A stretch of DNA of 64,000 nt from Oscillospiraceae bacterium (GTDB lineage: Bacteria > Bacillota > Clostridia > Oscillospirales > CAG-272). A program made the translations under genes and the position numbers. Position 1 is the first letter of the stretch. Each line of letters begins with the position of its first letter. A model generated the notes under the pieces. That model searched no databases. It saw only the letters and a list, made by a program, of their open reading frames with translations, and was not told the origin of the DNA. Shown here piece after piece: positions 22,151-33,954 of this stretch. The stretch is from positions 149,811 through 213,810 of the forward strand of contig SVRS01000001.1 of the NCBI GenBank assembly GCA_015064695.1. Reading direction: 5' to 3'.

Positions 22151-22400
22151 TTAAATGTGAATTCGTATAAGGCTTGCTTGAAGTATACATATTCGGCATA
22201 CAAAGAGTCCTCTGGCAAGATCGGGTGAGGCGCTTTTGGCGGGATGGTTTTTCAGCGGCGTTCTTCGGGGGTGCCTGCAAAAAAAGGCCGCCCCGAACGT
22301 ATCGATCGGGGGGCCTTTTTGGGAGAGTGCTGCACCGCGGAATTCGCGGCTCACGCCCTTTCTGCTCGTGTGCCGTACGGCGAGAATCGTGCTTGTGGCC

Positions 22401-23168
22401 TTAATTTTTGAAGCCGTACTGGTGGAACAGGCTGAAGGGGAGCAGGGAAAGGGCTTCCGTCGGTGTGTTGACGACTTCTGCACCGTCTACGTGGCTGTAC
22501 AGGATGGTGAACTCGTACGAGGGGGCCCCATCGTTGAAGTGCTCGATCATGGATTCCGCGCGACGGAGAATACTAAAATTGGTGCTGCGATTTCGGATCA
22601 GAACGAACTCCTTGTCCTTGACGGTGTACCGGAAGCTTGTGGAATAATCCTCTGTGACCGGCTGGTAGGCGGGATCGGGCAGACCCGTTTCACGATCAAT
22701 GCGGAACTGGTAGGAGGTGCATTGCATCTGCACAAATAAGGTTTCCACCCCGTCGGGACGGTCGATGTAGACGTTTTCCTGCATGAGCAGAATGCCATAG
22801 CTGTATTTATTTCGAAAGGCAACGACTTGGAAGTTGAACTGTCCTTGGAGTCGGAGCGGCTTTCGGAGGATGGAGACCAGCTCGGTGGCATCCGAAGCTT
22901 GCGGCAAAACGAAAAGCTCAAGAAAATGGGGGGCTTCGGCGTTCACGTCGGGGAGGGAGACGTAGCTTGTCGTATCGCTTTTGCTGATTAAGGGGAACTG
23001 GAAAAAAAGGGGGGATTCGGACGTGCCCTCGGTTTCGGAAGGCATATCTGCTGCAGGGGGCGGGCTTGTGGAATCGAAGGGCTGTGGAGTGGGGGTGGCA
23101 TGGCCGCAGGCGGTGGCCATACACAGAGCAGCCAGGCAAGACAGCGCTGCACGGAATGCTTTTTTCAT
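22401..23168 (-). CDS. Hypothetical lipoprotein, last gene of ECF cassette 2
   Basis: Start MKKAFRAA, lipobox ATAC, Pro/Ser/Thr linker. Confidence 0.7.
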   Translation of the reverse strand: MKKAFRAALSCLAALCMATACGHATPTPQPFDSTSPPPAADMPSETEGTSESPLFFQFPLISKSDTTSYVSLPDVNAEAPHFLELFVLPQASDATELVSILRKPLRLQGQFNFQVVAFRNKYSYGILLMQENVYIDRPDGVETLFVQMQCTSYQFRIDRETGLPDPAYQPVTEDYSTSFRYTVKDKEFVLIRNRSTNFSILRRAESMIEHFNDGAPSYEFTILYSHVDGAEVVNTPTEALSLLPFSLFHQYGFKN

Positions 23169-23212
23169 GGTAGGTAGGCTCCTTCTGTGTGAATGGTAGA
23201 GAATCAAACGGA

Positions 23213-25159
23213 TTATTCAAGGGATTCGACCAGGTCTCCGTCGGTGCAGGATACGGTGAAATCGGAATGGGGCTGCTCCAGACTGCCGAAGCCAACTCCC
23301 AAGGTCAGAGCCTTCCATTGCGCCTGGGTTCCGCCGTAATCGACGTGGTTGACCGAGACGCACCCTGCAAAGAGGCCGTACCGAACCGACGTCAAGGACA
23401 CGGGGATGGAAATGCTTTTCAGACCGGTACAATTCTCAAACAGATTATTTCCCAGGGACTCCAGGTGGGAGGGGAAGGAGACGGATTTCAGGGCGGTGCA
23501 GTTCTGGAACGCGTAGGAGTCGATCTCGGTCAGCGAGTCGGGGAAGGAGACGCTTTGCAGCTGTGAGCATCCCGAGAAGGCGCACATACCAATCTTGGTG
23601 ATGGGATCGGGAATGGTGATGCTTTGCATCCGGCGACCGCGGAATGCGGAGTCACCGATCTCGGTGACGGAGCCGTCGGAGGGAATGACAGCGTTGCATC
23701 CGCCCAGGACCAGGATCTTCTTGTCCTTTTGGATGATGCAGTTGTTCACTGCGGTGTACACGGGATTGTTCTCGTCTACGGTGAGCGTTGTCAAGGAGGG
23801 GCAGCCCGAGAAGCCGACGCCCGACAGATTGGTGACGGAGGCGGGAATATGGATGGCGGTCAAGGACGTGCAGTTTTCAAAGGCGAGGTCGATGCTGGTG
23901 ATGGCATCGTGGAGGATAATCTCCTTGAGAGAGGTGCAATCCTTGAAGTGATTCACGCCGACCTCGGTTACAAGGGGCGGGTAGGTAAAGGAGGTGAGGG
24001 AGGAGCATTCCTGGAATACGAAGTTCCCCATGCGCGTAACGGTGTCCGGCAAGGTAATGGCGGTCAGAGAGGTGCATCCGCAGAAGACATGGTTACCCAC
24101 GTGGGTCAGCTGAGCGGGTAAGCGTAGGTCGGACAGCACGGGGCAGTATGCAAACAGGCCGTCGTTGAGTTTGGTGACACCGTCGGGCAGGGAGACCTTA
24201 CGCAACCGCTTGCAGTTTGTGAAAGCGCTATCGCCCAGGGTGACCACACTATCGGGAAGAACTACCTCCGTGAGACCGGGGCAGTAGCCAAAGGCCATGT
24301 CGCCGATCTCGGTCAAGCCCTCGGGGAGATGGATCTCGGTAAAGGAATTGCAGGCGGTGAAGGCCATGCTGCCGATTTTTTTCAAGCCTGACGGGAACCG
24401 GACGTTCTGGAGGTTCGTGCAATGATCAAAGGCGTTTTTTTCGATGGTATGCACGGTATCGGGAATGACGATCTCCCGGAGCGTACTGTCATACTCGAAC
24501 AGCTCGCCGGAAATCACAGTTACGGGTACCATTTTTTCGGTTCCCACGTCATAAACGAGATTGGGAAGAATGATTTTTTCACCCTCGGCACCGTCTCTGC
24601 GGGAGATGCGGGCGCCTACCGATCCGTCCTCCTCCCGTTGGGTACGGAAGATGAAGCGCATATCCGCTCCCTCAATCGTGCCGCAAACCGTGCAGTAGCC
24701 GTTTTCATGGGTATGGGGGAGGGGATCTATGCTTTCGGTGACATAATTTCCGCAGACCGGGCAGGTTGCATTGCGCAAGCCGTTCACGTAACAGGTGGGC
24801 TCCCGTTCGATGGTCCAGCTTTCCACGTGATGGCCGTCCTGGCAGGAAAGGGTGAGGCGTGTTTCGGATTCGGATTCGGTTTCGGGAGAGGATTGCGTTG
24901 CGTCATCCGTCGTGGTGCCGTCCGGCGGAGTGACGGGGGGATTTTGTCCTGCCCAAACAATGGCGCAGACAACGCTGACGGAGATCACGGCGCAGAGGAG
25001 TGCGACACCCCAGCCGCCGGTCAGAAAGCGGGCGAGGGGGGAGGACTTCCGGTGGAGATGGGGTTGGGAGGGCTTCATAAGGCTTAGCTTTTCGGCGGCC
25101 TCCAGAATGAGGTCGTCCTGCATATCGGTCAAGGCAAAAAAGGCTCGTTCTCCGTTCAT
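23213..25159 (-). CDS. Putative anti-sigma factor with extracellular BspA-type LRR domain (about 16 repeats)
   Basis: Cytoplasmic ALTDMQDDLILEAA, TM GWGVALLCAVISVSVVCAIVW, linker, His/Cys repeat, LRR_5 units, YGGTQAQW cap; 4-bp overlap with the sigma gene. Confidence 0.8.
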   Translation of the reverse strand: MNGERAFFALTDMQDDLILEAAEKLSLMKPSQPHLHRKSSPLARFLTGGWGVALLCAVISVSVVCAIVWAGQNPPVTPPDGTTTDDATQSSPETESESETRLTLSCQDGHHVESWTIEREPTCYVNGLRNATCPVCGNYVTESIDPLPHTHENGYCTVCGTIEGADMRFIFRTQREEDGSVGARISRRDGAEGEKIILPNLVYDVGTEKMVPVTVISGELFEYDSTLREIVIPDTVHTIEKNAFDHCTNLQNVRFPSGLKKIGSMAFTACNSFTEIHLPEGLTEIGDMAFGYCPGLTEVVLPDSVVTLGDSAFTNCKRLRKVSLPDGVTKLNDGLFAYCPVLSDLRLPAQLTHVGNHVFCGCTSLTAITLPDTVTRMGNFVFQECSSLTSFTYPPLVTEVGVNHFKDCTSLKEIILHDAITSIDLAFENCTSLTAIHIPASVTNLSGVGFSGCPSLTTLTVDENNPVYTAVNNCIIQKDKKILVLGGCNAVIPSDGSVTEIGDSAFRGRRMQSITIPDPITKIGMCAFSGCSQLQSVSFPDSLTEIDSYAFQNCTALKSVSFPSHLESLGNNLFENCTGLKSISIPVSLTSVRYGLFAGCVSVNHVDYGGTQAQWKALTLGVGFGSLEQPHSDFTVSCTDGDLVESLE

Positions 25160-25698
25160 ACGTGATACCCCCCTTCCGCTAAGTGGGCGCGCAGGCGCTC
25201 GCGCAGCTTAAAGAGCCGCTGATTGACGGCGTTCGGGGTCATATTCATGCGGGCGGCCAGATCCTTTACCGAGCAGGCGTACCAGTATCGGCCCATGAAC
25301 AGAAGGCGGTCCGTCTCTCCTTGGCGGGTGAGAAAGTCGGACAGCATGGCGGCCAGATCATCGCTTCGCTCGTCGGGCATGGGAATGCAGGACTCCAGCT
25401 CGTCGAAGGACAGGGTCAGATCCCGATCCCTACGGCGGCGGTGCAGATCCCGCAGGCGGTTCAGGGATAGGTTTCGAACGATGCGGCAAACGAAGGCTCC
25501 GAGGGATCGGGGCTTGGTGGGGGGGATGCTGTTCCAGGTTTTCAAGTACGTATCGTTGACGCATTCCTCGGCGTCGGGAGAACTGTTCAGGATGTTCATG
25601 GACACCTGCATACAGACTCCGCCGTACTTGTCGGCCGTCTCGCGGATGGCCTGCTCGTTACGGTCAAAGTACAGAGCAACAATGTCTTGATCGTTCAT
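25156..25698 (-). CDS. ECF RNA polymerase sigma factor (cassette 2)
   Basis: DAEECVNDTYLKTWNSIPP (region 2), LFMGRYWY...AVNQRLFKLRERLR (region 4); GGAGGT RBS before ATG 25698. Confidence 0.92.
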   Translation of the reverse strand: MNDQDIVALYFDRNEQAIRETADKYGGVCMQVSMNILNSSPDAEECVNDTYLKTWNSIPPTKPRSLGAFVCRIVRNLSLNRLRDLHRRRRDRDLTLSFDELESCIPMPDERSDDLAAMLSDFLTRQGETDRLLFMGRYWYACSVKDLAARMNMTPNAVNQRLFKLRERLRAHLAEGGYHV

Positions 25699-25724
25699 GG
25701 TTACCTCCATTTAATATGTGTCTG

Positions 25725-25760
25725 TACTTATTATGACACCGTTTCATGTACGATTATTAT
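25725..25760 (-). promoter_or_regulatory. Putative ECF autoregulatory promoter (cassette 2)
   Basis: GTGTCATAATAAGTA, 13/15 identical to the motif upstream of the other sigma gene. Confidence 0.5.
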
Positions 25761-25788
25761 GGTTTGTTTGAATATTTCGTAAAAATAA

Positions 25789-25820
25789 GGAAAAAACGCA
25801 CCGCCCCGAGGGGCGATGCG
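25789..25820 (-). terminator. Terminator separating the two ECF cassettes
   Basis: CGCATCGCCCC/GGGGCGGTGCG stem followed by TTTTTT on the minus strand. Confidence 0.75.
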
Positions 25821-25841
25821 GTGAGAACTGAAAAAGGAAGA

Positions 25842-27164
25842 TTATCGGGGGCGGGCGTTGACATGAACCGTAACGCTTTCGGGAATCTGCGCCTGCAGGG
25901 CGTTCCACTGGGTCTCGGTGCCCGCAAAGTAGATGTCGGTCAAGGCGGGACATTCGTCAAAAACACCGTTTTCCAGCGTCTCAAGGCCGGCGGGGAGATA
26001 GACCTCGGTCAGGGAGGTGCATCCGCGGAAGGCGCAGGACTGGATCTCCTGTACCTTATTGGGGATTGTGAGGGATGTCAGAGAGGCACAATTCTCAAAG
26101 GCGTACATCCGAACCGTGATCAGATTTTTGGGGAGGGTGAGGTCGATCAGGGAGGTGCAGCCTGCGAAGGTTGAGGGATGTATGGTAAAGACGTTGTCGG
26201 GCAGGACGACCTTGGTCAGCTTCGAACAGCCGTAAAAGGCGTCGGGCTGCAGCTCCAGGAGGCTGTTGGGCAGAGTTAACTCGGTCAAAGACGTGCAGAA
26301 GGCGAAGGCGGCGGTCTCAATGGTATCCACCGTCTCGGGCAGGGTGAGGGCGGTGAGCATCTCGTCTCTGAAAAAGGCCTGCTCGGTGATGAATTTGATC
26401 TCACGGCCGTCTACGTAGGCGGGGATATAGACTGCGGCGGCGGTGCATTCTCCACGACCCGTGACGGCGTAGTAATTTGCCCCCTCGGAGAACCCGAAGG
26501 CCAGATCGGTATGCCCGATGTAGGGAACGATTTGGGGCTCGACCAGGACCTTACTGCATACCGAGCATTGGATGCCGTTGGCAGAGCCGTTTTCGGTCAG
26601 GGTGGGGGCTACGGCGGGAATGGAGATTCCCTTGTGATCGGTTTTGGCGATGGATTTGGATTCGATTTTCCCGCAGGAGCAGGTACGCTCCTGCTTGCCG
26701 ATGCTACGGCAGGTGGCCTCCTTGAGAACGGTCCAATCTCCGAAGGTATGGACGTGGGAATCGGGATTTTCCCAGGGGATGATGATCTCTCCGGTTACCG
26801 CATCCACCCAAATATTCTCCACCGTGGAATAGTGGGAGCTTTCGGGAAGCTCAACCAGCCAGCGGAGGAATACGTTGTAGACGGATCGTCCGTCGGGAGC
26901 TTGGAGGATCCCTTGGGACTCAATGCGGTAGACGAAGCCGCTGTCGGGGTCTACGTCCCCGGTTTTGATGTTCCAGTGGGCCGAGGCGAGGTCCATGGCT
27001 TGGGATTCGGAGATGGTCTGCAAATCGGTATCGGCGGTACCGGAATTCTGAGGGAGGTCGGGGCCGCTTTCGGCGGGATCTTGTCCTCTGTCGCAGGCGG
27101 GAAGGATGCACAGGGCAACCGTCAAGAGCAGAGGAAGGGTGAGCTTACGTGGAATGAATTTCAT
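25842..27164 (-). CDS. Lipoprotein with PepSY-like domain, His/Cys repeat and about 7 BspA-type LRRs
   Basis: Lipobox LPAC; ISESQAMDLA...WVDAVTGEII; HVHTFGDW..TC..G..RTCSCG; LRR_5; YFAGTETQW cap. Confidence 0.8.
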   Translation of the reverse strand: MKFIPRKLTLPLLLTVALCILPACDRGQDPAESGPDLPQNSGTADTDLQTISESQAMDLASAHWNIKTGDVDPDSGFVYRIESQGILQAPDGRSVYNVFLRWLVELPESSHYSTVENIWVDAVTGEIIIPWENPDSHVHTFGDWTVLKEATCRSIGKQERTCSCGKIESKSIAKTDHKGISIPAVAPTLTENGSANGIQCSVCSKVLVEPQIVPYIGHTDLAFGFSEGANYYAVTGRGECTAAAVYIPAYVDGREIKFITEQAFFRDEMLTALTLPETVDTIETAAFAFCTSLTELTLPNSLLELQPDAFYGCSKLTKVVLPDNVFTIHPSTFAGCTSLIDLTLPKNLITVRMYAFENCASLTSLTIPNKVQEIQSCAFRGCTSLTEVYLPAGLETLENGVFDECPALTDIYFAGTETQWNALQAQIPESVTVHVNARPR

Positions 27165-27210
27165 GATTTTCTCCTTTTGAGATGCGGATGCTTATCGTGT
27201 GATCGGGCCG

Positions 27211-28629
27211 TTAACGGCCATAGGACCGGATGGCGTGCTCGTAGTGTACGGTGGCTTCCAGGAAAGGGGCGTTTGTTCCTTGGAGGTTGCCCACGGCTAT
27301 GGCGTTCCATTGCTCCTCGGTGCCGCTATAGTAGATGTCCGTCAGATTCACACAGCCTCCAAAGGCGTGGGATTCGATGCTCGTGACGTTCACGCCCAGG
27401 GAAATCGACGTCAGCGACGTGCAATTTTCAAAGGCGTAGGATTTGATCTCGGTCACCGTGGCGGGGATCGTGATCTCGGTCAGGGAGGAGCAACCCGCGA
27501 AGTCGAAGCTTCGAATGGAGGTAATAGGCGCTTGGATGGTCACAGACTGCAGGGCGGTCAGATTCTGGAAGCCGCTGAGGTCGGTGACCTTGCCATCCCG
27601 AATGATGACGTGCTTCACGGCAGTCACGTCGCTGCCGAAAAGGAAATCGAGGCTGAAATGTGTGGGCATGGTAACGGTGGCCAGGCGGGAGCAGCCCTGG
27701 AACACGAGCAGACCATATTCCTCCAGGGACTCCGGCAGCTCCAGGGAGGTGAGGCCGATGCAATCCACGAAGGCATGGTTCCCCAGGGTCTTCAATCCTT
27801 CGGGAAGGGTGATAGAGGAAAGCATCTTGCAGCCTCGGAAGGCGCTTGAATCGATGCAGGTCACACCGTCGGGGATGCGGATGGACTCCAGCGACTTGCA
27901 GAGGATAAACGCATCGTGCTCGATGACGGTTACGCCTGCGGGAATGACAAGCTCGGTAAGCTTTCCGCAGTTACTGAAGGTAGAGGAGGGAATGACCGTC
28001 AAGCCTTCGGGGAGGGTGCAGGAGGCAAGGCTCGTACAACCTGCGAAGACACCGTAGCCAAAGTCGGTCACGCTGTTCGGAACGGCTATGGAGGTCAGGG
28101 AAAAGCAGCCGGTGAAGGCCCAGTCACCCAGCTTTTTCAGCCCGCTTGGAAGGGTGACGTCGCTCAGCAGTGGGCAATTGGCGAAGGCCCAGTCCTCGAT
28201 GGACGTCAAGCCGGCGGGTAATTCCACCCGTGTCAGATCGGAGCATTCCGAGAAGGCGTTCTCTCCAATGGCGGTCACGGGGGCGCCGTTATAGGTGGAG
28301 GGAATCACGATCTCGGTGTTGGTACAGCCTTTGATGCCCGATACCGCGTAGCTTCCATCGCTTTGCTTGGAGAATACCAGCCCCTCGAAGGCGTTCCCCG
28401 GTTCGGTTTCCGATTCTGCTTCGGTAACCGCATCCGTAACCGTATCCGTATCCGAATTCGTATCCGCATCCGTATCCGTGTCGCTATCCCTGTCCGCGGT
28501 TGTGGCCGCGGAGGGAGGTTGGTCGGTGGTTTGATGATTTTCACCCTCGGGCGCTATGGCGCAGGCGGTCATGCCTACGGCCAGCAGGATGACCGAGAGG
28601 GCAATGGAGATTCCGGTGGTTGATTTCAT
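27211..28629 (-). CDS. BspA-type LRR lipoprotein (about 13-14 repeats)
   Basis: Start MKSTTGIS with AAAGGA RBS; lipobox MTAC; LRR_5 repeats; YYSGTEEQW cap. Confidence 0.85.
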   Translation of the reverse strand: MKSTTGISIALSVILLAVGMTACAIAPEGENHQTTDQPPSAATTADRDSDTDTDADTNSDTDTVTDAVTEAESETEPGNAFEGLVFSKQSDGSYAVSGIKGCTNTEIVIPSTYNGAPVTAIGENAFSECSDLTRVELPAGLTSIEDWAFANCPLLSDVTLPSGLKKLGDWAFTGCFSLTSIAVPNSVTDFGYGVFAGCTSLASCTLPEGLTVIPSSTFSNCGKLTELVIPAGVTVIEHDAFILCKSLESIRIPDGVTCIDSSAFRGCKMLSSITLPEGLKTLGNHAFVDCIGLTSLELPESLEEYGLLVFQGCSRLATVTMPTHFSLDFLFGSDVTAVKHVIIRDGKVTDLSGFQNLTALQSVTIQAPITSIRSFDFAGCSSLTEITIPATVTEIKSYAFENCTSLTSISLGVNVTSIESHAFGGCVNLTDIYYSGTEEQWNAIAVGNLQGTNAPFLEATVHYEHAIRSYGR

Positions 28630-28664
28630 AGGCGTATCCTTTCTGATTGCGGGGAGGCGGAGGA

Positions 28665-30617
28665 TCAAGATTGGAGGAAATAAACGTTTTCTTCGAGAAT
28701 GGGGGGGTTGTGATTCGCGATTTGGATGCGGCTCCATTGCTGATCGGTGCCGCGGAAATAGATCCTTGTCAGCGCCTCACAGCTGTGGAAGGCGAATTCT
28801 CCGATAGAGGTCAAGCTGCTCCCCAGGGTGAGGGAATTCAGAGCATTACAATCATAGAATGCATACCGATCAATGGTGACCACACCGTTGGGGATGGTGA
28901 TCGACGTCAAGCTCTGGCAGCTGTAGAAGGCCTCTTTTCCAATGGAGGTGATGCTTTCGGGGAGGATCACCTCGGTCAGCGCGGTACAACAGGCGAAGGC
29001 ACTCGGGGAGATTTCGGTGACTCCTTCGGGAACGGTTATGGAGGTAAGGGCGTAACAATCGCAGAAGGCGTATTCTCCGATGGAGGTCACAGTGTCGGGG
29101 AGTGTGATGGAGGGGAGTGCATTGCAGTTGGCGAAGGCGGCGTATTCCAGCGTGGTCAATCCCTCGGGGAGGGTCACCTCGATCAGGCTTCTGCAATTAC
29201 TGAATGCTTCCTTGCGGATGACCGTGACCCGGGGCGGCAGCGCTACGGAGGTCAGACCGGTGCATTGTCCAAAGGCGCTGGCTCCGATATCGGTAACCGT
29301 GTCGGGGATATCGATCTCGGTCAAGGCGGAGCAAGCGAAGAAGGCCTCGTCCCCGATGACGGTGACGGTGTCGGGTATGGATATATGAGGCAGATCATGG
29401 CAATAGCCAAAGGCACCTTCTCCAATGGTGAGGAGGCCGTCGGGGAGAATAACCGAGGTCAGGGATTGACACCCCAAGAAGGTCTGGGCATCAACGGTGC
29501 GGATCCCATCGGGGATGCGAATGGATACGAGCTTCGGGCAATCGGAGAAGACGGCCTGCCCCATGGAGAGAAGGCGCTCGGGGAGAGAGACCGATACCAG
29601 ACTATGGCAACAGGCAAAAACGTGGTGGCCCAGGGAGGTCACGCTCCGGGGAACCGTAACCTCGGTCAGACTGCGGCAGTTCATAAAGGCTTGGCTTCCG
29701 ATTTCCGTCACACCGTTGGGAATGGTGATTTCGGTCAGTACCCTACATTCGTTGAGGAATTCTTCCGGAATTTCGGTGATGCGCTGAGGCAGGCGGATGC
29801 TTTTCAGCTCCACGCAGTAGGAGAAGACGCCGGCGCCGAGGTGGGTGATGCTGTCGGGCAGGGTGGCCCGGGTCAGCTTGGAGCAGTTGGCAAAGGCGTT
29901 ATCCCCTAAGAAGGTGACACTGTCCGGGAGGGTGATTTCAGTCAGCTTGGAGCAGTTGGCGAAGGCCGCTTGCTCGATGCGGGTAACACTGTTGGGAATC
30001 CGGACGGAGGTCAATTCCCTGCAGTTGCGGAAGGCGTTGACACCGATGGAGGTAATGCCCTCGGGAATGAACACCGAGGTCATGCAATCGTAGCCGATAA
30101 AGGCGTCATCTCCAATGGCGGTGATGGGATATCCCTCGCAGGAATCGGGAATATGAACGGAGGATCTGTAGACTTCCCCGACGCTTGTAAGGGTATAGGA
30201 GCGGGTGTCCCGATTGTAGGAAAAGGTCATTCCGTCGAGGGTCACCGTGGCGGGGGAAGGGACGGTCTCCTGGGTGGTGACCTCCTCGTGGGGCTCCGTA
30301 TCGGTTTCGGGAGGTGGGGAGACGGATTCCGTATCGGGGGAGGGCTTGGTTCCCACGGGGCCGATGACGGGCGGTCGGGAGCCCACCCACATGAGGGCGC
30401 AGACGGTGCTGAGGGCTACGGCGGCACAGAGCAGGGCAACACCCCAGCCGCTTTGCATGAAGCGAGTCAGAGGATTGTTTCTTGCTTCGCGGTATACGCG
30501 AGGACGGACTCCCACGATGGGCGTGGGGTCATCCAAAAGCCCCAGGACCTCGGCGGCTTCCTCGATGAAGTCGTCGCGGATCAGAGACAATACGTCAAAT
30601 GCTTGTTGTCCTGTCAT
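28665..30617 (-). CDS. Putative anti-sigma factor with extracellular BspA-type LRR domain (about 20 repeats)
   Basis: Cytoplasmic VLSLIRDDFIEEAA, TM GWGVALLCAAVALSTVCALMW, 23-aa LRR_5 units; 4-bp overlap with the sigma gene. Confidence 0.82.
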   Translation of the reverse strand: MTGQQAFDVLSLIRDDFIEEAAEVLGLLDDPTPIVGVRPRVYREARNNPLTRFMQSGWGVALLCAAVALSTVCALMWVGSRPPVIGPVGTKPSPDTESVSPPPETDTEPHEEVTTQETVPSPATVTLDGMTFSYNRDTRSYTLTSVGEVYRSSVHIPDSCEGYPITAIGDDAFIGYDCMTSVFIPEGITSIGVNAFRNCRELTSVRIPNSVTRIEQAAFANCSKLTEITLPDSVTFLGDNAFANCSKLTRATLPDSITHLGAGVFSYCVELKSIRLPQRITEIPEEFLNECRVLTEITIPNGVTEIGSQAFMNCRSLTEVTVPRSVTSLGHHVFACCHSLVSVSLPERLLSMGQAVFSDCPKLVSIRIPDGIRTVDAQTFLGCQSLTSVILPDGLLTIGEGAFGYCHDLPHISIPDTVTVIGDEAFFACSALTEIDIPDTVTDIGASAFGQCTGLTSVALPPRVTVIRKEAFSNCRSLIEVTLPEGLTTLEYAAFANCNALPSITLPDTVTSIGEYAFCDCYALTSITVPEGVTEISPSAFACCTALTEVILPESITSIGKEAFYSCQSLTSITIPNGVVTIDRYAFYDCNALNSLTLGSSLTSIGEFAFHSCEALTRIYFRGTDQQWSRIQIANHNPPILEENVYFLQS

Positions 30618-31174
30618 AGACGGTACCCTCTTTCTGTCAGGTAGGCCCGTAGCTTCTCCCGAATCCTATGCAATCGTATAGAGGCGGCGTTGGAGGTCAG
30701 ATCCAGGCGAGCGGCCAGATCCTGCACGGGACGGGCGTACCAGTACCGTCCCACGAACAGGGCACGGTCTTCTTTATTTAATGAAGCAAGGAAATCGTTC
30801 AACAGGTCGGGAAGCTGCGAGGAGGATTCGGACAGGGGAATGCAGGACTCCAGCTCTTGAAGAGACAGGGTCAGCTCTCGATTGCGCTTGGCGGCTCGCA
30901 TATCCCGCAGTCGATTCAGGGACAGGTTGCGTACGATGCGGCAGACGAAGGCGCACAGGGACGCGGGACGGGTGGGCGGAATGGAATTCCAGGTTTTCAG
31001 ATAGGTATCGTTGAGGCATTCCTCTGCGTCGGGCTGGCTATTTACGATATCCATGGATATCTGCAGGCAGAGCTTTCCGTATTTGGCGTCGGTCTCACGG
31101 ATGGCTTGCTCGTTTCGGGCAAAGTACAGCTCCACGATTTCGGTGTCGGAGCAAAAGGGGGGCGCGTGTTTCAT
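30614..31174 (-). CDS. ECF RNA polymerase sigma factor (cassette 1)
   Basis: DAEECLNDTYLKTWNSIPP, LFVGRYWY...AASIRLHRIREKLR; AAAGGAG RBS. Confidence 0.92.
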   Translation of the reverse strand: MKHAPPFCSDTEIVELYFARNEQAIRETDAKYGKLCLQISMDIVNSQPDAEECLNDTYLKTWNSIPPTRPASLCAFVCRIVRNLSLNRLRDMRAAKRNRELTLSLQELESCIPLSESSSQLPDLLNDFLASLNKEDRALFVGRYWYARPVQDLAARLDLTSNAASIRLHRIREKLRAYLTERGYRL

Positions 31175-31196
31175 AGAGGGACTCCTTTCGGTGTTC

Positions 31197-31233
31197 TACC
31201 TATTAAGACACGGAACGTGGGGTGAATCTTTCC
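31197..31233 (-). promoter_or_regulatory. Putative ECF autoregulatory promoter (cassette 1)
   Basis: GTGTCTTAATAGGTA preceded by GGAAAG; matches the motif at 25725-25739. Confidence 0.5.
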
Positions 31234-31240
31234 GAAATGC

Positions 31241-31278
31241 AAAAAAAATGTGTGGGATCCGCATGGCAGATCCCACGG
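31241..31278 (-). terminator. Terminator after GH3
   Basis: GTGGGATC/GATCCCAC stem and a T8 tract on the minus strand. Confidence 0.7.
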
Positions 31279-31299: not shown

Positions 31300-33552
31300 T
31301 CAGGAAACCACGATGGTTTGATTCAGACGAATATCATTGGAGGATGCGCCCACCATGATCTCGAACTCGCCGGGCTCAACCACCCACTTCCAATCGCGGT
31401 TCAGCAGCTTGAAGTCGTCGAAGTCAAGCTCGAAGCGGATCTCACAGGCCTCGCCTGCTTCCAGGGTGACGCGCTTGAACTTGCGGAGTACCTTTTCGGG
31501 GGTGACGATGGAGCTTTCGGGATCGTTTACGTAGAGCTGAGCCACCTCGTCGCCGGCGCGGTCGCCCACGTTCTTGACGGTGAAGGTTACCTCAAAGCGG
31601 TACAGGCCCAGAGACTTGATGGAAAGGTCGCTATACTCAAATTTCGTATAGGACAGACCGAAGCCGAAGGGGTACATGGGTGCGCGGGGTCCCTCCAGGT
31701 AATCGCAGGAGCCGCCGGGCAGACGGGTGTAGTAGCAGGGGATCATGCCCTCGTCGTAGGGGTAGGACACGGTCAGACGGCCTGCGGGGTTGACGTCACC
31801 CGCCAGAGTGTTGACGATGGCCTTGGCACCGAATTCGCCGCCGAAGCCGGCTACCAGAATGGAGGCGCAGACGGGGGTTTCGGCGGAGAGGTCTACCGCC
31901 TTTCCGTTCTCCAGCACCAGCACCACGGGGGTACCCGTCTCGGCTACCTTCAGGATCAGCTCTCGCTGACGGCCGGCCAGCACCAGGCGGGAGCGGTCAC
32001 AGCCCTCGCCGCTGGATACGGTGTTGTCACCGCAGACCAGGATGGCGATCTCGGAATTCCTGGCAATCTCCACGGCCTCGTCGATCATGTCCGCGATGTC
32101 GGCATCCAGCATACGGGTCAGGTGGGGCTGACCGTCCACGTAACGAACGGTTTCACCATGGGTGTGGGTGATGGCGCAACCGTCGCACTGGTGGATCTCG
32201 GCGGCAGGATAGCGCTCCTTCAGCTCGTCGTAGACAGACTTGATGGTGTAGCCCATGGGGACGGAGGAATAGCCGCCGATCTTTTGGGCGGCGGAGCAGG
32301 GACCGATGACGGCGATCTTCTTGTAGCCGTCCTTCAAAGGCAGGATTCCGTTGTTGGTCAGAAGGACCATGGCCTCCTCGGCGGACTTGAGGGAGACGGC
32401 GGCGTGCTTGTCACAACGCAGGATATCCTTGTAGGCGTTTTCGTCGGCGTAGGGATTCTCAAAGAGACCCAGCTCGAACTTCATCTTGAGGATGCGGAGG
32501 ACCGAATCGTCGATCCGGGATTCCTGGAGCTTACCGGCCTTAACCAGGTCATAGACGGTCTTGTTCCAGAAGCGGGCATCGTAATCGCAGGCACCCTGCA
32601 TATCCAGACCGCCGGAGAGACAGCGGCGGACGCACTCCTCCCGGGTCTTGGCGACCTTGTGGTAGCCGATCAAACGGCCGACGCCGCCCCAGTCGGCGCG
32701 GGACACGCCTCGCATACCCCAGCGCTCCTTCAGCACCTCGGTCATGTAGTAGGGGCTTTCGGTGACGATCTCGCCGTCGATGCTGTTGTAGGAGGACATG
32801 ACGTTGTAGGCACCGCCACGCACGATGCCGGCCTCGAATACGGGCAGGTAGACGGTCTCCACCTCGCGGCGGCCCACACGGGCGGGAGCGCAGTTGATGC
32901 CGCCCTCGGGCGTACCGTACACGCAGTAGTGCTTGGGCTCGGCAATAACCGTGTCACCACGGGAAATGTCACCCTTCTGCTCACCGGAAATGATGGCTAC
33001 GGCCATTTCGGAGGACAGGTAGGTGTCCTCACCGAAGGTCTCCTCCATGCGGCCCCAGCGGGGATCGCGGGCCACGTCCAGGTTGGGCGCCAGGATCTCG
33101 TGATGGCCCATGACACGTGTCTCATGGGCAATACCGTCACCGATGGCGTTGACGATCTCGGGGTCAAAGGACTGGGACAGGGTCAGGGGAACGGGGAAAA
33201 TGGATGCACCGTGGAAGGCGAGACCGTGCAGGGCCTCGGCGGTGAAGATGGCGGGGATACCCAAACGGGTCTTTTCCACCAGGTACCGCTGCATACGGTT
33301 CTTGATGAAGGGCTCGGAGTAGATATCGTGAATGTAGCCGATACCCTGGGTGCCGACGTATTCCTGATACCGATCCTCCATGAAGGTGTCGTCGGGCTCA
33401 ACGGTGCAACAATCGGTCCTATCGCTGTCTACGTGGAAATTGGTGCCTCGGATAATGTTGATTTGAGCAATTTTTTCCTCAAGGGTCATGCGGGCGAGCA
33501 GGTCCTTCGCGCGCTCCTCGGGAGTCAGGGCGGGATTCTTGTACGCTTCCAT
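31300..33552 (-). CDS. Glycoside hydrolase family 3 (beta-glucosidase/beta-xylosidase)
   Basis: EALHG, RDPRWGRMEETFGED, PKHY, ADW nucleophile motif, YPFGFGLSYT, Fn3-like C-terminus; start MEAYKNP. Confidence 0.93.
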   Translation of the reverse strand: MEAYKNPALTPEERAKDLLARMTLEEKIAQINIIRGTNFHVDSDRTDCCTVEPDDTFMEDRYQEYVGTQGIGYIHDIYSEPFIKNRMQRYLVEKTRLGIPAIFTAEALHGLAFHGASIFPVPLTLSQSFDPEIVNAIGDGIAHETRVMGHHEILAPNLDVARDPRWGRMEETFGEDTYLSSEMAVAIISGEQKGDISRGDTVIAEPKHYCVYGTPEGGINCAPARVGRREVETVYLPVFEAGIVRGGAYNVMSSYNSIDGEIVTESPYYMTEVLKERWGMRGVSRADWGGVGRLIGYHKVAKTREECVRRCLSGGLDMQGACDYDARFWNKTVYDLVKAGKLQESRIDDSVLRILKMKFELGLFENPYADENAYKDILRCDKHAAVSLKSAEEAMVLLTNNGILPLKDGYKKIAVIGPCSAAQKIGGYSSVPMGYTIKSVYDELKERYPAAEIHQCDGCAITHTHGETVRYVDGQPHLTRMLDADIADMIDEAVEIARNSEIAILVCGDNTVSSGEGCDRSRLVLAGRQRELILKVAETGTPVVLVLENGKAVDLSAETPVCASILVAGFGGEFGAKAIVNTLAGDVNPAGRLTVSYPYDEGMIPCYYTRLPGGSCDYLEGPRAPMYPFGFGLSYTKFEYSDLSIKSLGLYRFEVTFTVKNVGDRAGDEVAQLYVNDPESSIVTPEKVLRKFKRVTLEAGEACEIRFELDFDDFKLLNRDWKWVVEPGEFEIMVGASSNDIRLNQTIVVS

Positions 33553-33580
33553 AGTGAGTTCTCCTTTTCGATTGTCTTTT

Positions 33581-33653
33581 AGGAACCTCTGCAATTTCGT
33601 CATGCGAAAAATCGTCCTGCCGATTTTCGGATGCTGAGTATGTAGAAGCACCC
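33581..33653. mobile_element. Degenerate short MITE copy in the GH3 5' leader
   Basis: AGGAACCTCTGCAATTTC...GCTGAGTATGTAGAAGCACCC resembles the ends of the 22000 and 52492 elements. Confidence 0.5.
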
Positions 33654-33691
33654 CGGTGGGATGAAAATCAACGGAATTGCTGATTGGAATT

Positions 33692-33720
33692 ATTATACCA
33701 TAGATTTCTGTGCGTGTCAA
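33692..33720 (-). promoter_or_regulatory. sigmaA promoter of GH3
   Basis: TTGACA-N17-TATAAT with TG extension. Confidence 0.8.
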
Positions 33721-33954
33721 GTTTTTTTGTGGGAAATCCCGCAGCCGTTTGGACGGTAGTCTGAACTTTTTTCGTGACAAAATTCACAGAAATTCATGAA
33801 AAATCCTCTTGCTATTCCGAAAGAATTATGCTATAATATTATGTGGAATTTTTTCGTATTCTGCGGACGTTCGGTGGCGGAGCTTTTTTCGGCTCGCTCG
33901 ACGCAGAATCATGAAAGATCTCCCATTATCTGCACATTGGAGGAGCCTTGTCCC

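Follow-up and report, generated by a model that had tools for sequence, protein, structure and literature searches.

Two adjoining gene cassettes on the minus strand of an uncultured animal-gut Clostridia bacterium each combine an ECF sigma factor with a single-pass LRR membrane protein. We consider it probable that each cassette is a self-contained transmembrane ECF sigma/anti-sigma signalling unit, with ligand-triggered release and an autoregulated operon. For an LRR-solenoid sensor on a predicted sigma-holding tail we found no published description and no public annotation that recognises the design: the literature searched describes no LRR anti-sigma factor, in keeping with an earlier note on this DNA that knew of no characterised example, and the names given in public records are 'leucine-rich repeat domain-containing' or 'hypothetical'.

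Two sigma–LRR cassettes

Positions are those of the window, the whole 64,000-nucleotide stretch of DNA analysed.

31252-31276, minus strand: hairpin terminator upstream of cassette 1 (11-bp stem, T-run; -19.8 kcal/mol)
31193-31244, minus strand: promoter-like motif upstream of sig1 (GGAAAGA, N14, CGTGTCTTAATAGGTA); candidate autoregulated ECF promoter
30614-31174, minus strand: sig1, ECF sigma factor, 186 aa, sigma2 + sigma4 only (Pfam, TIGR02937)
28665-30617, minus strand: asLRR1, putative anti-sigma factor, 650 aa
27211-28632 (ORF up to 28737), minus strand: lipoLRR_a, probable LRR_5 lipoprotein; likely start 28632, M36 of the ORF
25842-27164, minus strand: lipoLRR_b, probable lipoprotein; LRR_5 repeats, a segment rich in Cys, weak PepSY-like match
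25797-25820, minus strand: hairpin terminator between cassettes 1 and 2 (10-bp stem, 8 GC pairs; -21.7 kcal/mol)
25721-25772, minus strand: promoter-like motif upstream of sig2 (CGGTGTCATAATAAGTACAGA); -35-like part not conserved
25156-25710, minus strand: sig2, ECF sigma factor, 184 aa
23213-25159, minus strand: asLRR2, putative anti-sigma factor, 648 aa
22401-23168 (ORF up to 23207), minus strand: lipoX, probable lipoprotein, beta-rich domain; likely start 23168, M14
22279-22315, minus strand: hairpin terminator after lipoX, end of cassette 2 (by eye; -23.9 kcal/mol)

The gene coordinates agree with the earlier description of an ECF sigma gene running by 4 bp into the gene for an LRR membrane protein, in sig1/asLRR1 (ATGA) as in sig2/asLRR2. 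Cassette 1 comprises sig1, asLRR1 and two LRR lipoproteins, and cassette 2 comprises sig2, asLRR2 and one non-LRR lipoprotein, again as first described: Pfam finds LRR_5 in lipoLRR_a and lipoLRR_b and none in lipoX, which has no Pfam match at all and whose beta-rich domain is without known family. All three are probable lipoproteins, each with a hydrophobic stretch that resembles a signal and ends in Cys (GMTAC, ILPAC and MATAC); a strict lipobox pattern matched none of the three. The likely start of lipoLRR_a is preceded by AGAAAGGA and lies 32 nt downstream of the asLRR1 stop. Hairpins flank each cassette on both sides, in line with the insulation proposed earlier, and the one at 22279-22315 was missed by the consensus scan. 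An 826-aa gene (ORF 31300-33780) precedes cassette 1 and is ended by the terminator at 31252-31276. RNA-library contigs lie on all seven genes, a weak hint; the RNA run may hold DNA.

Both sigmas matched Sigma70_r2 and Sigma70_r4_2 (Pfam) and exceeded the TIGR02937 cut-off of 42.9 bits (66.6 for sig1, 62.2 for sig2). They are 64% identical to each other (E 8e-79). At ~180 aa, with sigma2 and sigma4 and an ECF model above its cut-off, they are by sequence ECF (group 4) sigma-70 factors; no equivalog or subfamily model reached cut-off for either in the NCBIfam-type model scan that included TIGR02937.

Hydropathy and charge analysis gave a single hydrophobic segment per LRR protein (residues 56-80 of asLRR1, 45-73 of asLRR2), with K/R commoner before than after it. 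Because the predicted sigma-binding N-terminus would be cytoplasmic, the TM segment is single and the basic residues lie on its N-side, the LRRs are predicted to be extracellular, as had been proposed. In asLRR1, a predicted sigma-binding helix (2-30) is followed by a TM helix (~56-80), a Pro/Thr/Glu linker (~81-125) and LRR_5 repeats with a C-terminal cap (~150-640). The order in asLRR2 is an N-terminal helix, TM helix (~45-73), linker, Cys-rich segment (~105-165) and ~15-16 LRR_5 repeats. The TM helix is conserved and Gly/Ser/Cys-rich, and the linker is disordered. A 23-residue repeat motif matched 18 times in asLRR1, with one double spacing (~19-20 units), and 14 times, with gaps, in the LRR part of asLRR2 (~15-16 units), close to the 20 or so and 16 BspA-type LRRs that the earlier note had placed behind a Pro/Thr/Glu linker.

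By Pfam match, the repeats are BspA-type LRRs (LRR_5, PF13306; cut-off 27.7 bits): asLRR1 scored 550 bits (E 6.7e-168), asLRR2 331 (2.8e-100), lipoLRR_a 272 (5.3e-82) and lipoLRR_b 140 (4.6e-41). Solved relatives of the LRR part are PDB 4fs7, 4gt6, 4h09, TpLRR 6mlx and PcpA 4cp6 (E 4.7e-60 to 5.4e-18). Judged by names and the literature searched, known BspA-type LRR_5 proteins are described as surface proteins or adhesins, and none is described with a sigma-binding fusion or sigma-gene pairing. These LRRs may bind an external protein.

A short N-terminal module with predicted sigma contacts

Alignment of asLRR1 with asLRR2 (32% identity, E 7e-91) displays a common N-terminal motif (LSLIRDDFIEEAAE and LTDMQDDLILEAAE) and an identical GWGVALLCA, the homologous short cytoplasmic domain and near-identical TM start remarked on before. 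The module has no match in Pfam, NCBIfam or PDB, including any anti-sigma family. Class I anti-sigma domains are four-helix domains of ~100 aa, often with an Hx3Cx2C motif. Such a domain (zf-HC2/ZAS, RseA_N, RskA and similar) was ruled out: only LRR families match asLRR1 and asLRR2 (Pfam, E ≤ 0.01), no conserved His/Cys precedes the TM helix, and just ~55 aa lie on the cytoplasmic side.

The earlier proposal that this module acts as a sigma-binding anti-sigma domain is favoured, at the level of prediction, by two analyses. The 56 N-terminal residues of asLRR1, modelled with sig1 from unpaired 26-row alignments, gave a complex score of 0.74 (median of 0.79, 0.72 and 0.74) against 0.02 for the best of three controls; 116 of 157 solved complexes attain the complex-score mark, as do 2 of 215 mismatched pairs. 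The runs had at least 81% of contacts in common, and pLDDT of the partner was at least 64. Part of this pass may be model memory, since ECF/anti-sigma complexes are in the PDB, yet the partner has no PDB sequence relative. In the predicted complex, residues 2-30 of asLRR1 contact sigma residues 31-38 and 71-90, inside the Sigma70_r2 match, and 105-157, in the linker and sigma4. Covariation across 111 sigma/partner pairs is consistent with these contacts: the 25 best-defined ones had a mean APC-corrected mutual information of 0.075, against 0.0005 overall (s.d. 0.054), and none of 5,000 draws of random sigma columns matched this value, in a set where sequence relatedness inflates covariation. 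Residues of the predicted interface, 23% of the sigma, take part in half of the 20 top covarying pairs. Residues 2-30 are thus predicted to form a minimal anti-sigma domain touching both sigma2 and sigma4.

A similarly small domain is described in the available text on CnrY (PMC7406223), whose class II domain (with CnrH, PDB 4cxf) has <50 aa and no zinc motif and contacts sigma2 and sigma4. The segment described here is likewise very short and lacks a zinc motif, and its contacts on sigma2 and sigma4 are predicted ones. A PDB sequence search detected no similarity to CnrY, and ~30 residues are predicted to make contacts here; moreover, the Cupriavidus metal-sensing system, as far as that text describes it, has a separate periplasmic sensor, whereas the sensor here is fused. 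On the model, the segment would work like class II (CnrY-type) domains while being unrelated in sequence.

Relatives, operon products and known systems

The 4-bp overlap was kept in 111 of 113 unique sigma/partner pairs from other genomes across Clostridia, so the pairing is not chance. Among loci found by the N-terminus, a sigma gene lay directly upstream in 29 of 30, the 30th being broken by a contig end. A profile of the N-terminal module matched 487 representative clusters, at the protein N-terminus in all 150 of the matches listed. LRRs were fused in 10 of 28 foreign loci found by the N-terminus, in 12 of 79 partners at loci picked by sigma similarity, and in 16 of the 75 best N-terminal-profile representatives. 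Tandem sigma–asLRR arrays occurred threefold at one locus (L039) and twofold at another (L044), with one in another genus (L049). Sequence comparison thus has LRR fusions recurring in the genus and its kin, a conserved linkage that the earlier note had made a condition of its reading. None of the three outcomes by which that note would have seen its idea refuted (N-terminal domains that do not bind the sigmas, cytoplasmic LRRs, unconserved linkage) came up in these in-silico analyses. The sigma family is hugely expanded, at 23-32 copies in each of five genus genomes; swapping of ectodomains is frequent, and the much-expanded LRR ectodomains turn over fast.

By sequence, sensor ectodomains and the lipoproteins of their own operons are paralogues. 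Between asLRR1 and the operon lipoproteins, identity of the LRR parts is 30-39%, the lipoX domain forms the ectodomain in anti-sigma paralogues from five other genomes, and a further anti-sigma ectodomain (C36) is 36% identical to its own downstream lipoprotein (E 1e-72). The earlier note had offered the lipoproteins as co-receptors or outputs; outputs that are also sensor-domain paralogues are a better reading than demonstrated co-receptors. We infer that they are operon outputs.

Of the known systems, SigI/RsgI and sigma24C/Rsi24C of Clostridium thermocellum come closest. As described in the available parts of four sources (PMC3990059, PMC10328401, PMC12203970, 10.1101/2023.06.27.546760), the anti-sigmas there cross the membrane once, bind sigma through a cytoplasmic N-terminus and carry a large binding module outside the cell; the sensor modules (CBM3, PA14, GH5-like) are of the same kind as those in the regulated surface or secreted proteins, sigma is released by cleavage outside the membrane and then by RseP, and there are nine RsgI factors. 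The present pairs resemble what those parts describe in being clostridial, multi-copy and single-pass, with a cytoplasmic N-terminus (predicted here) and an extracellular module, and their proposed sensor-output logic is like that of RsgI sensors made of cellulosomal binding modules. They differ in having a plain two-domain ECF sigma with an ordinary r4_2 rather than SigI, an LRR solenoid (usually protein-binding) rather than a carbohydrate module, and 23-32 copies per genome against the nine given there. Since Pfam gives LRR families only on asLRR1 and asLRR2, there is no RsgI_N and no autoproteolytic domain. Membership of the SigI/RsgI family was rejected, with no RsgI Pfam match and only ~10 residues from TM helix to disordered linker.

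RsiV/SigV is, in the available text (PMC4183432), a Firmicute pair in which the extracellular domain of the ECF anti-sigma binds lysozyme, a host protein, directly, leading to regulated intramembrane proteolysis. Our putative anti-sigmas would share this design with what is described there, but both anti-sigma and sensor domains differ; RsiV is without LRRs, and its system is a single-copy one for stress rather than an expanded modular family.

Eukaryotic LRR receptors (Toll-like receptors, plant LRR receptor kinases) also link an LRR solenoid outside the cell, through one TM helix, to a signalling part in the cytoplasm. The parallel drawn with them earlier stands only as an analogy of design: the LRR subfamily is a different one, the signalling part is not homologous, and the output here would be direct transcription-factor release. 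The likeness would be convergent at most.

Proposed signalling route and its alternatives

In the reading we prefer, translation of sigma would be coupled to that of a type-II single-pass membrane protein whose residues 2-30 contact sigma2 and sigma4; because they are predicted to touch both, they would keep sigma off RNA polymerase. TM helix and disordered linker would hold the 15-20-repeat BspA-type LRR solenoid beyond the cell wall. An ectodomain event, most likely the binding of a protein or glycoprotein ligand, would cause loss of the ectodomain, after which a site-2 protease would cleave within the membrane, the N-terminal piece would be degraded and sigma would be set free to transcribe its own operon from the conserved promoter, yielding more sensor and the co-encoded surface lipoproteins. 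With ectodomain and lipoproteins paralogous, the sensor would recognise the same kind of target as the output proteins act on. Ligand and proteolytic cascade are the parts that we infer. The window's own genome has an M50 site-2 protease (191 bits), which says little because M50 was found in 14 of 14 control genomes; we identified neither a site-1 protease nor a SEAL domain nor a cleavage motif.

The promoter-like motif is common to 11 of 26 sigma upstream regions, and its strong PWM matches in the window's own genome lie only before sig1 and sig2. The 16-nt -10-region motif matched 13 times in five genomes, nine of them, with all five exact matches among these, immediately ahead of sigma genes belonging to this subfamily, against one match for a reversed control pattern; the other four look like chance or coding sequence. 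Since the motif also resembles the extended -10 of the housekeeping sigma (TGT-CATAAT) and its -35-like part is missing before sig2, autoregulation is a matter of interpretation.

With the motif found only before sigma genes, the operon itself may be the whole regulon, as would suit a self-regulating surface-protein cassette. Here the LRR protein would be the product (an adhesin or binding protein), and its shedding, degradation or mis-assembly would free sigma for replacement or amplification, a homeostatic or damage feedback. Many relatives' cassettes consist of sigma and LRR protein alone, in tandem (as at L039 and L044), the ectodomains are the same domains as in the free lipoproteins, and the long disordered linker would be accessible to proteases. 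However, the regulon search behind this account covered one 16-nt motif in one subfamily, in five genomes and the window's own, and the account leaves 23-32 separate sigma specificities per genome unexplained. It has the same sigma/anti-sigma core as the preferred reading and differs in the trigger alone; we give it a small but real chance of being right.

It seems unlikely that the N-terminal module is no anti-sigma at all, the LRR protein being merely a co-transcribed sigma target whose tail and TM helix serve anchoring, sorting or another partner. The lack of a match to known anti-sigma families fits this idea, and the TM helix with its juxtamembrane motif (SRFxNSGWGVA) is more conserved than the N-terminal helix, which hints at another, in-membrane partner; against it, the complex prediction passes by a wide margin over controls, the predicted contacts covary, and the 4-bp coupling persists in 111 of 113 pairs across Clostridia even with completely different TM sequence and ectodomain. 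A defence switch, with LRRs recognising surface proteins of phage or rivals and sigma activating defence, is very improbable despite the expanded, fast-changing LRR ectodomains and a Myxococcus precedent (a transmembrane anti-sigma/ECF pair controlling defence genes, in the available text of PMC11506125), as none of the seven cassette proteins matches a PADLOC family, the operons encode surface proteins only, and nothing in the list of neighbouring ORFs points to defence genes.

Extending the preferred reading of ligand-triggered release to the whole genus is more tentative. The genus may hold two to three dozen independent receptor-and-sigma channels, in which binding domains of surface proteins have been grafted onto one minimal anti-sigma/TM module, so that the cell senses each surface protein's target and induces that protein alone; the LRR members would then be a convergent counterpart of plant and animal LRR receptor arrays, diversified by frequent ectodomain swapping. 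The ectodomain kinds named for such grafting are LRR_5, the lipoX domain, a binding-protein-like domain and a beta-propeller.

Gene content of the two cassettes

Both cassettes lie entirely on the minus strand. Cassette 1 holds sig1, asLRR1, lipoLRR_a and lipoLRR_b, and cassette 2 holds sig2, asLRR2 and lipoX; sig1 and sig2 are ECF sigma factors, asLRR1 and asLRR2 are putative anti-sigma membrane proteins with an LRR_5 ectodomain, and the remaining three are probable lipoproteins.

Features of the two cassettes (window positions)
31252-31276, minus: hairpin terminator, 5' of cassette 1
30614-31174, minus: sig1, 186 aa
28665-30617, minus: asLRR1, 650 aa; its ATG overlaps the sig1 stop as ATGA
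ORF to 28737, likely start 28632, minus: lipoLRR_a; the likely start is preceded by AGAAAGGA and is 32 nt past the asLRR1 stop
25842-27164, minus: lipoLRR_b
25797-25820, minus: strong terminator in the interval between lipoLRR_b and sig2
25156-25710, minus: sig2, 184 aa
23213-25159, minus: asLRR2, 648 aa; ATGA overlap with sig2 here too
likely start 23168, stop 22401, minus: lipoX
22279-22315, minus: third terminator, -23.9 kcal/mol, missed by the consensus scan

Pfam identified Sigma70_r2 and Sigma70_r4_2 in sig1 and sig2, and LRR_5 in asLRR1, asLRR2, lipoLRR_a and lipoLRR_b (E 6.7e-168 to 4.6e-41); lipoX had no Pfam match. NCBIfam assigned both sigma factors solely to the generic ECF superfamily model TIGR02937, above the cut-off. 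The sigma factors are 64% identical to each other. Their partners asLRR1 and asLRR2 are 32% identical, with a common helix motif near the N-terminus and, where the sole hydrophobic segment begins, an identical GWGVALLCA. The repeats have a period of 23 residues; asLRR1 has about 19-20 of these units, asLRR2 about 15-16. The earlier note had described two cassettes with these genes, 4-bp overlaps, GWGVALLCA, repeats and terminators, and its description proved accurate at every checkable point.

Cys-rich segments were seen between the linker and the LRRs of asLRR2 (residues ~105-165, window 24665-24847) and in lipoLRR_b (residues ~140-215, window 26520-26747). They contain spaced C..C pairs (for example, TCYVNG..ATCPVCG..YCTVCG and ATCRS..RTCSCG..IQCSVCS), had no Pfam match and may form a small extracellular zinc-ribbon-like or disulphide module.

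An N-terminal module coupled to its sigma factor

The N-terminal module of asLRR1 and asLRR2, a predicted sigma-binding helix plus a TM helix, had no match in Pfam, NCBIfam or PDB, and only unnamed Bacillota clusters were returned by the ESM Atlas (score 0.91). The DUF4179 and RsgI_M leads from the same atlas (0.82 and 0.78) fell below a trustworthy level. Four lines of evidence (coupling to sigma genes, predicted binding, covariation and position in the protein) point to an anti-sigma role for this module.

Coupling was analysed from both sides of the pair. Fifteen paralogues of the sigma are encoded in the window's own genome, an assembly of 2.53 Mb with 83.6% completeness. In ten cases, the gene of a single-pass protein whose N-terminal helix is similar overlaps the sigma gene by 4 bp; in three, such a gene lies 25-41 nt downstream, and a partner gene was not found for the other two. 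The 90-residue N-terminus had matches in 16 of the 24 other genus genomes searched, with at most 20 matches each, whereas the 16 genomes taken from other families in the order had none. Of 30 loci found with the N-terminus, 29 have a sigma homologue directly upstream, and a contig end cuts the 30th. A sigma-based scan using one genome per species yielded at least 615 loci, mostly from metagenome-assembled genomes labelled Clostridia, Eubacteriales, Oscillospiraceae or Lachnospiraceae, and isolate names among them often point to animal guts. Of 113 unique sigma/partner pairs across all fetched loci, 111 keep the 4-bp overlap.

When 1.84 billion representatives were searched with the profile, 487 clusters of the close subfamily matched at E <= 0.001 and, with the limit tightened to E <= 1e-10, 256; the module stood at the protein N-terminus in all 150 matches listed. 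Residues 1-90 searched against 5.8 billion sequences gave a single match (P0001), because E-values are too harsh for 90 residues at that database size.

The proposal that these N-terminal domains bind the sigma factors gained support from structure prediction of the cognate sig1/asLRR1 pair. Folding sig1 with asLRR1 residues 1-56, using a 26-row alignment for each, gave a complex score of 0.74 (median of 0.79, 0.72 and 0.74), against 0.02 for the best of three controls; solved complexes attained this score in 116 of 157 cases, mismatched pairs in 2 of 215. At least 81% of contacts were common to the runs, with partner pLDDT of at least 64. Residues 2-30 of asLRR1 were predicted to touch sig1 residues 31-38 and 71-90, within the Sigma70_r2 match, and likewise residues 105-157, a region that covers the linker and a large part of the Sigma70_r4_2 match. 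All three known classes of ECF anti-sigma domain are described as binding in this dual mode, in contact with both sigma domains (PMC7406223). The complex score is a model confidence obtained from our own alignments, and solved ECF/anti-sigma complexes known to the model may have raised it.

Covariation was assessed in 111 sigma/partner pairs, 85 of them outside the alignments used for the complex fold. The 25 best-defined predicted contacts had a mean APC-corrected mutual information of 0.075 versus 0.0005 overall (s.d. 0.054), a value reached in 0 of 5000 draws pairing random sigma columns with the same partner columns. Of the 20 strongest covarying pairs, 10 involved residues of the predicted interface, which amounts to 23% of the sigma. 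Covarying pairs include sigma R137 with partner E20, sigma Y146 with A21 and sigma N126 with F17. Relatedness inflates such covariation, and random columns of the same proteins are a partial control.

Ectodomain exchange and a shared domain pool

The sigma-LRR linkage, on which the earlier reading depended, is conserved in relatives. Among 28 foreign loci identified through the N-terminus, 10 have LRRs in frame with the module, as do 12 of 79 partners from loci picked by sigma similarity and 16 of the 75 best representatives from the N-terminal profile. Seventeen of those 75 had any Pfam match, 16 to LRR_5 and one to an RHS repeat (P0020). Relatives also carry tandem sigma-asLRR arrays (three cassettes in L039, two in L044), and one sigma-asLRR cassette was found in the genome of another genus (L049).

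On a quick tree of 110 sigmas, with SH-aLRT as its only support measure, the LRR label needed 16 changes, at least eight of them forced by well-supported branches. The label was clustered beyond chance (0 of 500 shuffles as low), and all 28 LRR cases fell within one 68-row clade; the sample is non-random, with 11 loci chosen for their LRRs. Even so, this count shows many exchanges of ectodomains relative to the sigma.

Two further loci were observed. L016 (G005:C57:1-2432) has a 203-aa ORF with the N-terminal module followed by LRR fragments in other frames, which may reflect a frameshift in, or decay of, a sigma-asLRR cassette, or else an error of assembly. C36:1150-3084 (L064), in the window's own genome, encodes a Beta_propel ectodomain (PF09826, E 4.2e-66) beside a sigma paralogue.

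Sensors and lipoproteins draw on related domains. The LRR parts of asLRR1, asLRR2, lipoLRR_a and lipoLRR_b share 30-39% mutual identity. Among 28 other genus genomes, 12 have homologues of lipoX; in some of these (for example, G015:C204) the homologue is a separate gene just after a sigma/anti-sigma pair, and in five other species (L006, L008, L009, L013 and L023) the lipoX domain is the ectodomain of an anti-sigma paralogue. A third cassette in the window's own genome (C36:18087-23746; L062, L071 and L072) encodes, in order, a sigma, an anti-sigma with a non-LRR ectodomain, a lipoprotein and an LRR_5 lipoprotein (4-bp overlap), and the anti-sigma ectodomain is 36% identical to the lipoprotein that follows it (E 1e-72). 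For RsgI/Rsi24C of C. thermocellum, sensors built from modules of the regulated proteins are a proposed logic (PMC3990059). By analogy, a sensor that shares its modules with the proteins under its control is most likely the logic here too.

The pLDDT of lipoX rose from 41.5 when folded without relatives to 71.9 with ten relatives. The fold had no convincing match among solved structures (best Foldseek E 0.078), and a wide VIA-align search gave a best Z of 6.0, with partial propeller-blade likeness only. This lack of a structural match is not evidence for a new fold.

The sigma family is strongly expanded: five genomes of the genus (G001, G002, G006, G007 and G018; 2.4-3.5 Mb) hold 23-32 copies each, roughly one per 100 kb. 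This is far above the Firmicute average of 7.1 given in the ECF reclassification (PMC7826278).

The cassettes are predicted to work like a classical ECF sigma/anti-sigma pair and are most like SigI/RsgI; the predicted likeness of the N-terminal module to class II anti-sigma domains is functional only. ECF sigma/anti-sigma pairs are a main bacterial signalling route and, to our knowledge, the input of most anti-sigma sensor domains is not known. Searches of the open full-text literature for anti-sigma factors with LRRs found no such protein described, nor are LRRs mentioned in the main text and supplement of the ECF reclassification, as available to us (PMC7826278). The seven cassette proteins gave no PADLOC matches. 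Among the LRR-fused proteins, public names were attached to 4 of the 29 members examined in ten clusters, about 90% being unnamed, and named copies are called only 'leucine-rich repeat domain-containing protein' or 'hypothetical protein', so that these regulators are invisible in current annotation.

The system combines a signalling principle that is already known with a putative minimal anti-sigma module that lacks annotation, an unusual sensor of the protein-binding kind and striking modular expansion. The module is compact, at about 30 contact residues plus one TM helix, is widespread in gut Clostridia and takes interchangeable ectodomains, the most recognisable being the protein-binding LRR solenoid. 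Should the ectodomain report what the co-encoded surface proteins bind, the cassettes would offer a direct handle on the targets of uncultured gut anaerobes on hosts, food particles or neighbours. The cassettes would also supply a set of small, probably orthogonal sigma/anti-sigma/promoter parts.

Predicted membrane topology, a candidate promoter motif and possible expression

Prediction places the C-terminal part of the asLRR proteins outside the cell, because the N-terminus is predicted to bind the sigma, there is one TM segment, and basic residues are in excess N-terminal to it compared with its C-terminal side. This agrees with the extracellular LRRs of the earlier note. The best-conserved part of the close subfamily is the TM helix with its cytoplasmic flank (SRFxNSGWGVAxxCAxVSLSVLGGIIWAGQxP), and W58, C64, G79 and P87 are invariant in an alignment of 28 N-termini. 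That the TM helix and flanks (asLRR1 residues 52-87) are more conserved than the sigma-binding helix suggests a further constraint in the membrane, for example, a protease or another partner.

The TM helix is rich in Gly, Ser and Cys, a composition that would suit site-2 protease cleavage. The window's own genome encodes an M50 protease (C44:14058-15053), but so do all 14 control genomes. The sigma would be released by proteolysis, after the model of RsiV and RsgI. Since neither a site-1 protease nor an autoproteolytic domain was found, and the stretch between the TM helix and the disordered Pro/Thr/Glu linker is just some ten residues long, we infer this step by analogy with RsiV (PMC4183432) and RsgI (PMC10328401, PMC12203970).

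The motif tGAAAgA-N14-cgGTGTCATAATAggTACAGAGAC is found ahead of 11 of the 26 sigma genes in the close subfamily, and its strong matches in the window's own genome lie before sig1 and sig2 only. Allowing at most one mismatch, the -10 part had 13 matches in five genus genomes, against one for a reversed control pattern. Nine of the 13, including all five exact matches, directly precede best-scoring sigma genes; the other four lie in or beside conserved coding sequence and were read as chance. This distribution fits autoregulation, with the operon as main output. The motif also resembles an extended -10, and the -35-like part is absent before sig2. A 52-column promoter PWM was rejected as overfitted. 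Apart from sig1 and sig2, its sole match in the window's own genome was weak and lay ahead of an unrelated ORF of 142 aa (C24:21443-21494).

In one metatranscriptomic run, short contigs (200-330 nt, 95-100% alike) fell on all seven genes, and one spans the asLRR1/lipoLRR_a junction. Because the library may contain DNA, they are no more than a hint of expression; parts of asLRR1 (~29536-30791) and other bins had no cover, and nothing can be read from these gaps.

The 8.8-kb stretch of the two cassettes was found in runs of 12 gut or faeces metagenome studies, from animals according to their records. Joints between sig1 and sig2 in DNA contigs were set aside, their 20-letter sides being too short to trust. 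One DNA run, X4, yielded a 4.1-kb contig on cassette 2 and a 5.3-kb contig on cassette 1. Both end at the inter-cassette terminator (window 25796-25836) with loose ends unlike the window, as if the cassettes in that strain were non-adjacent or split by other DNA.
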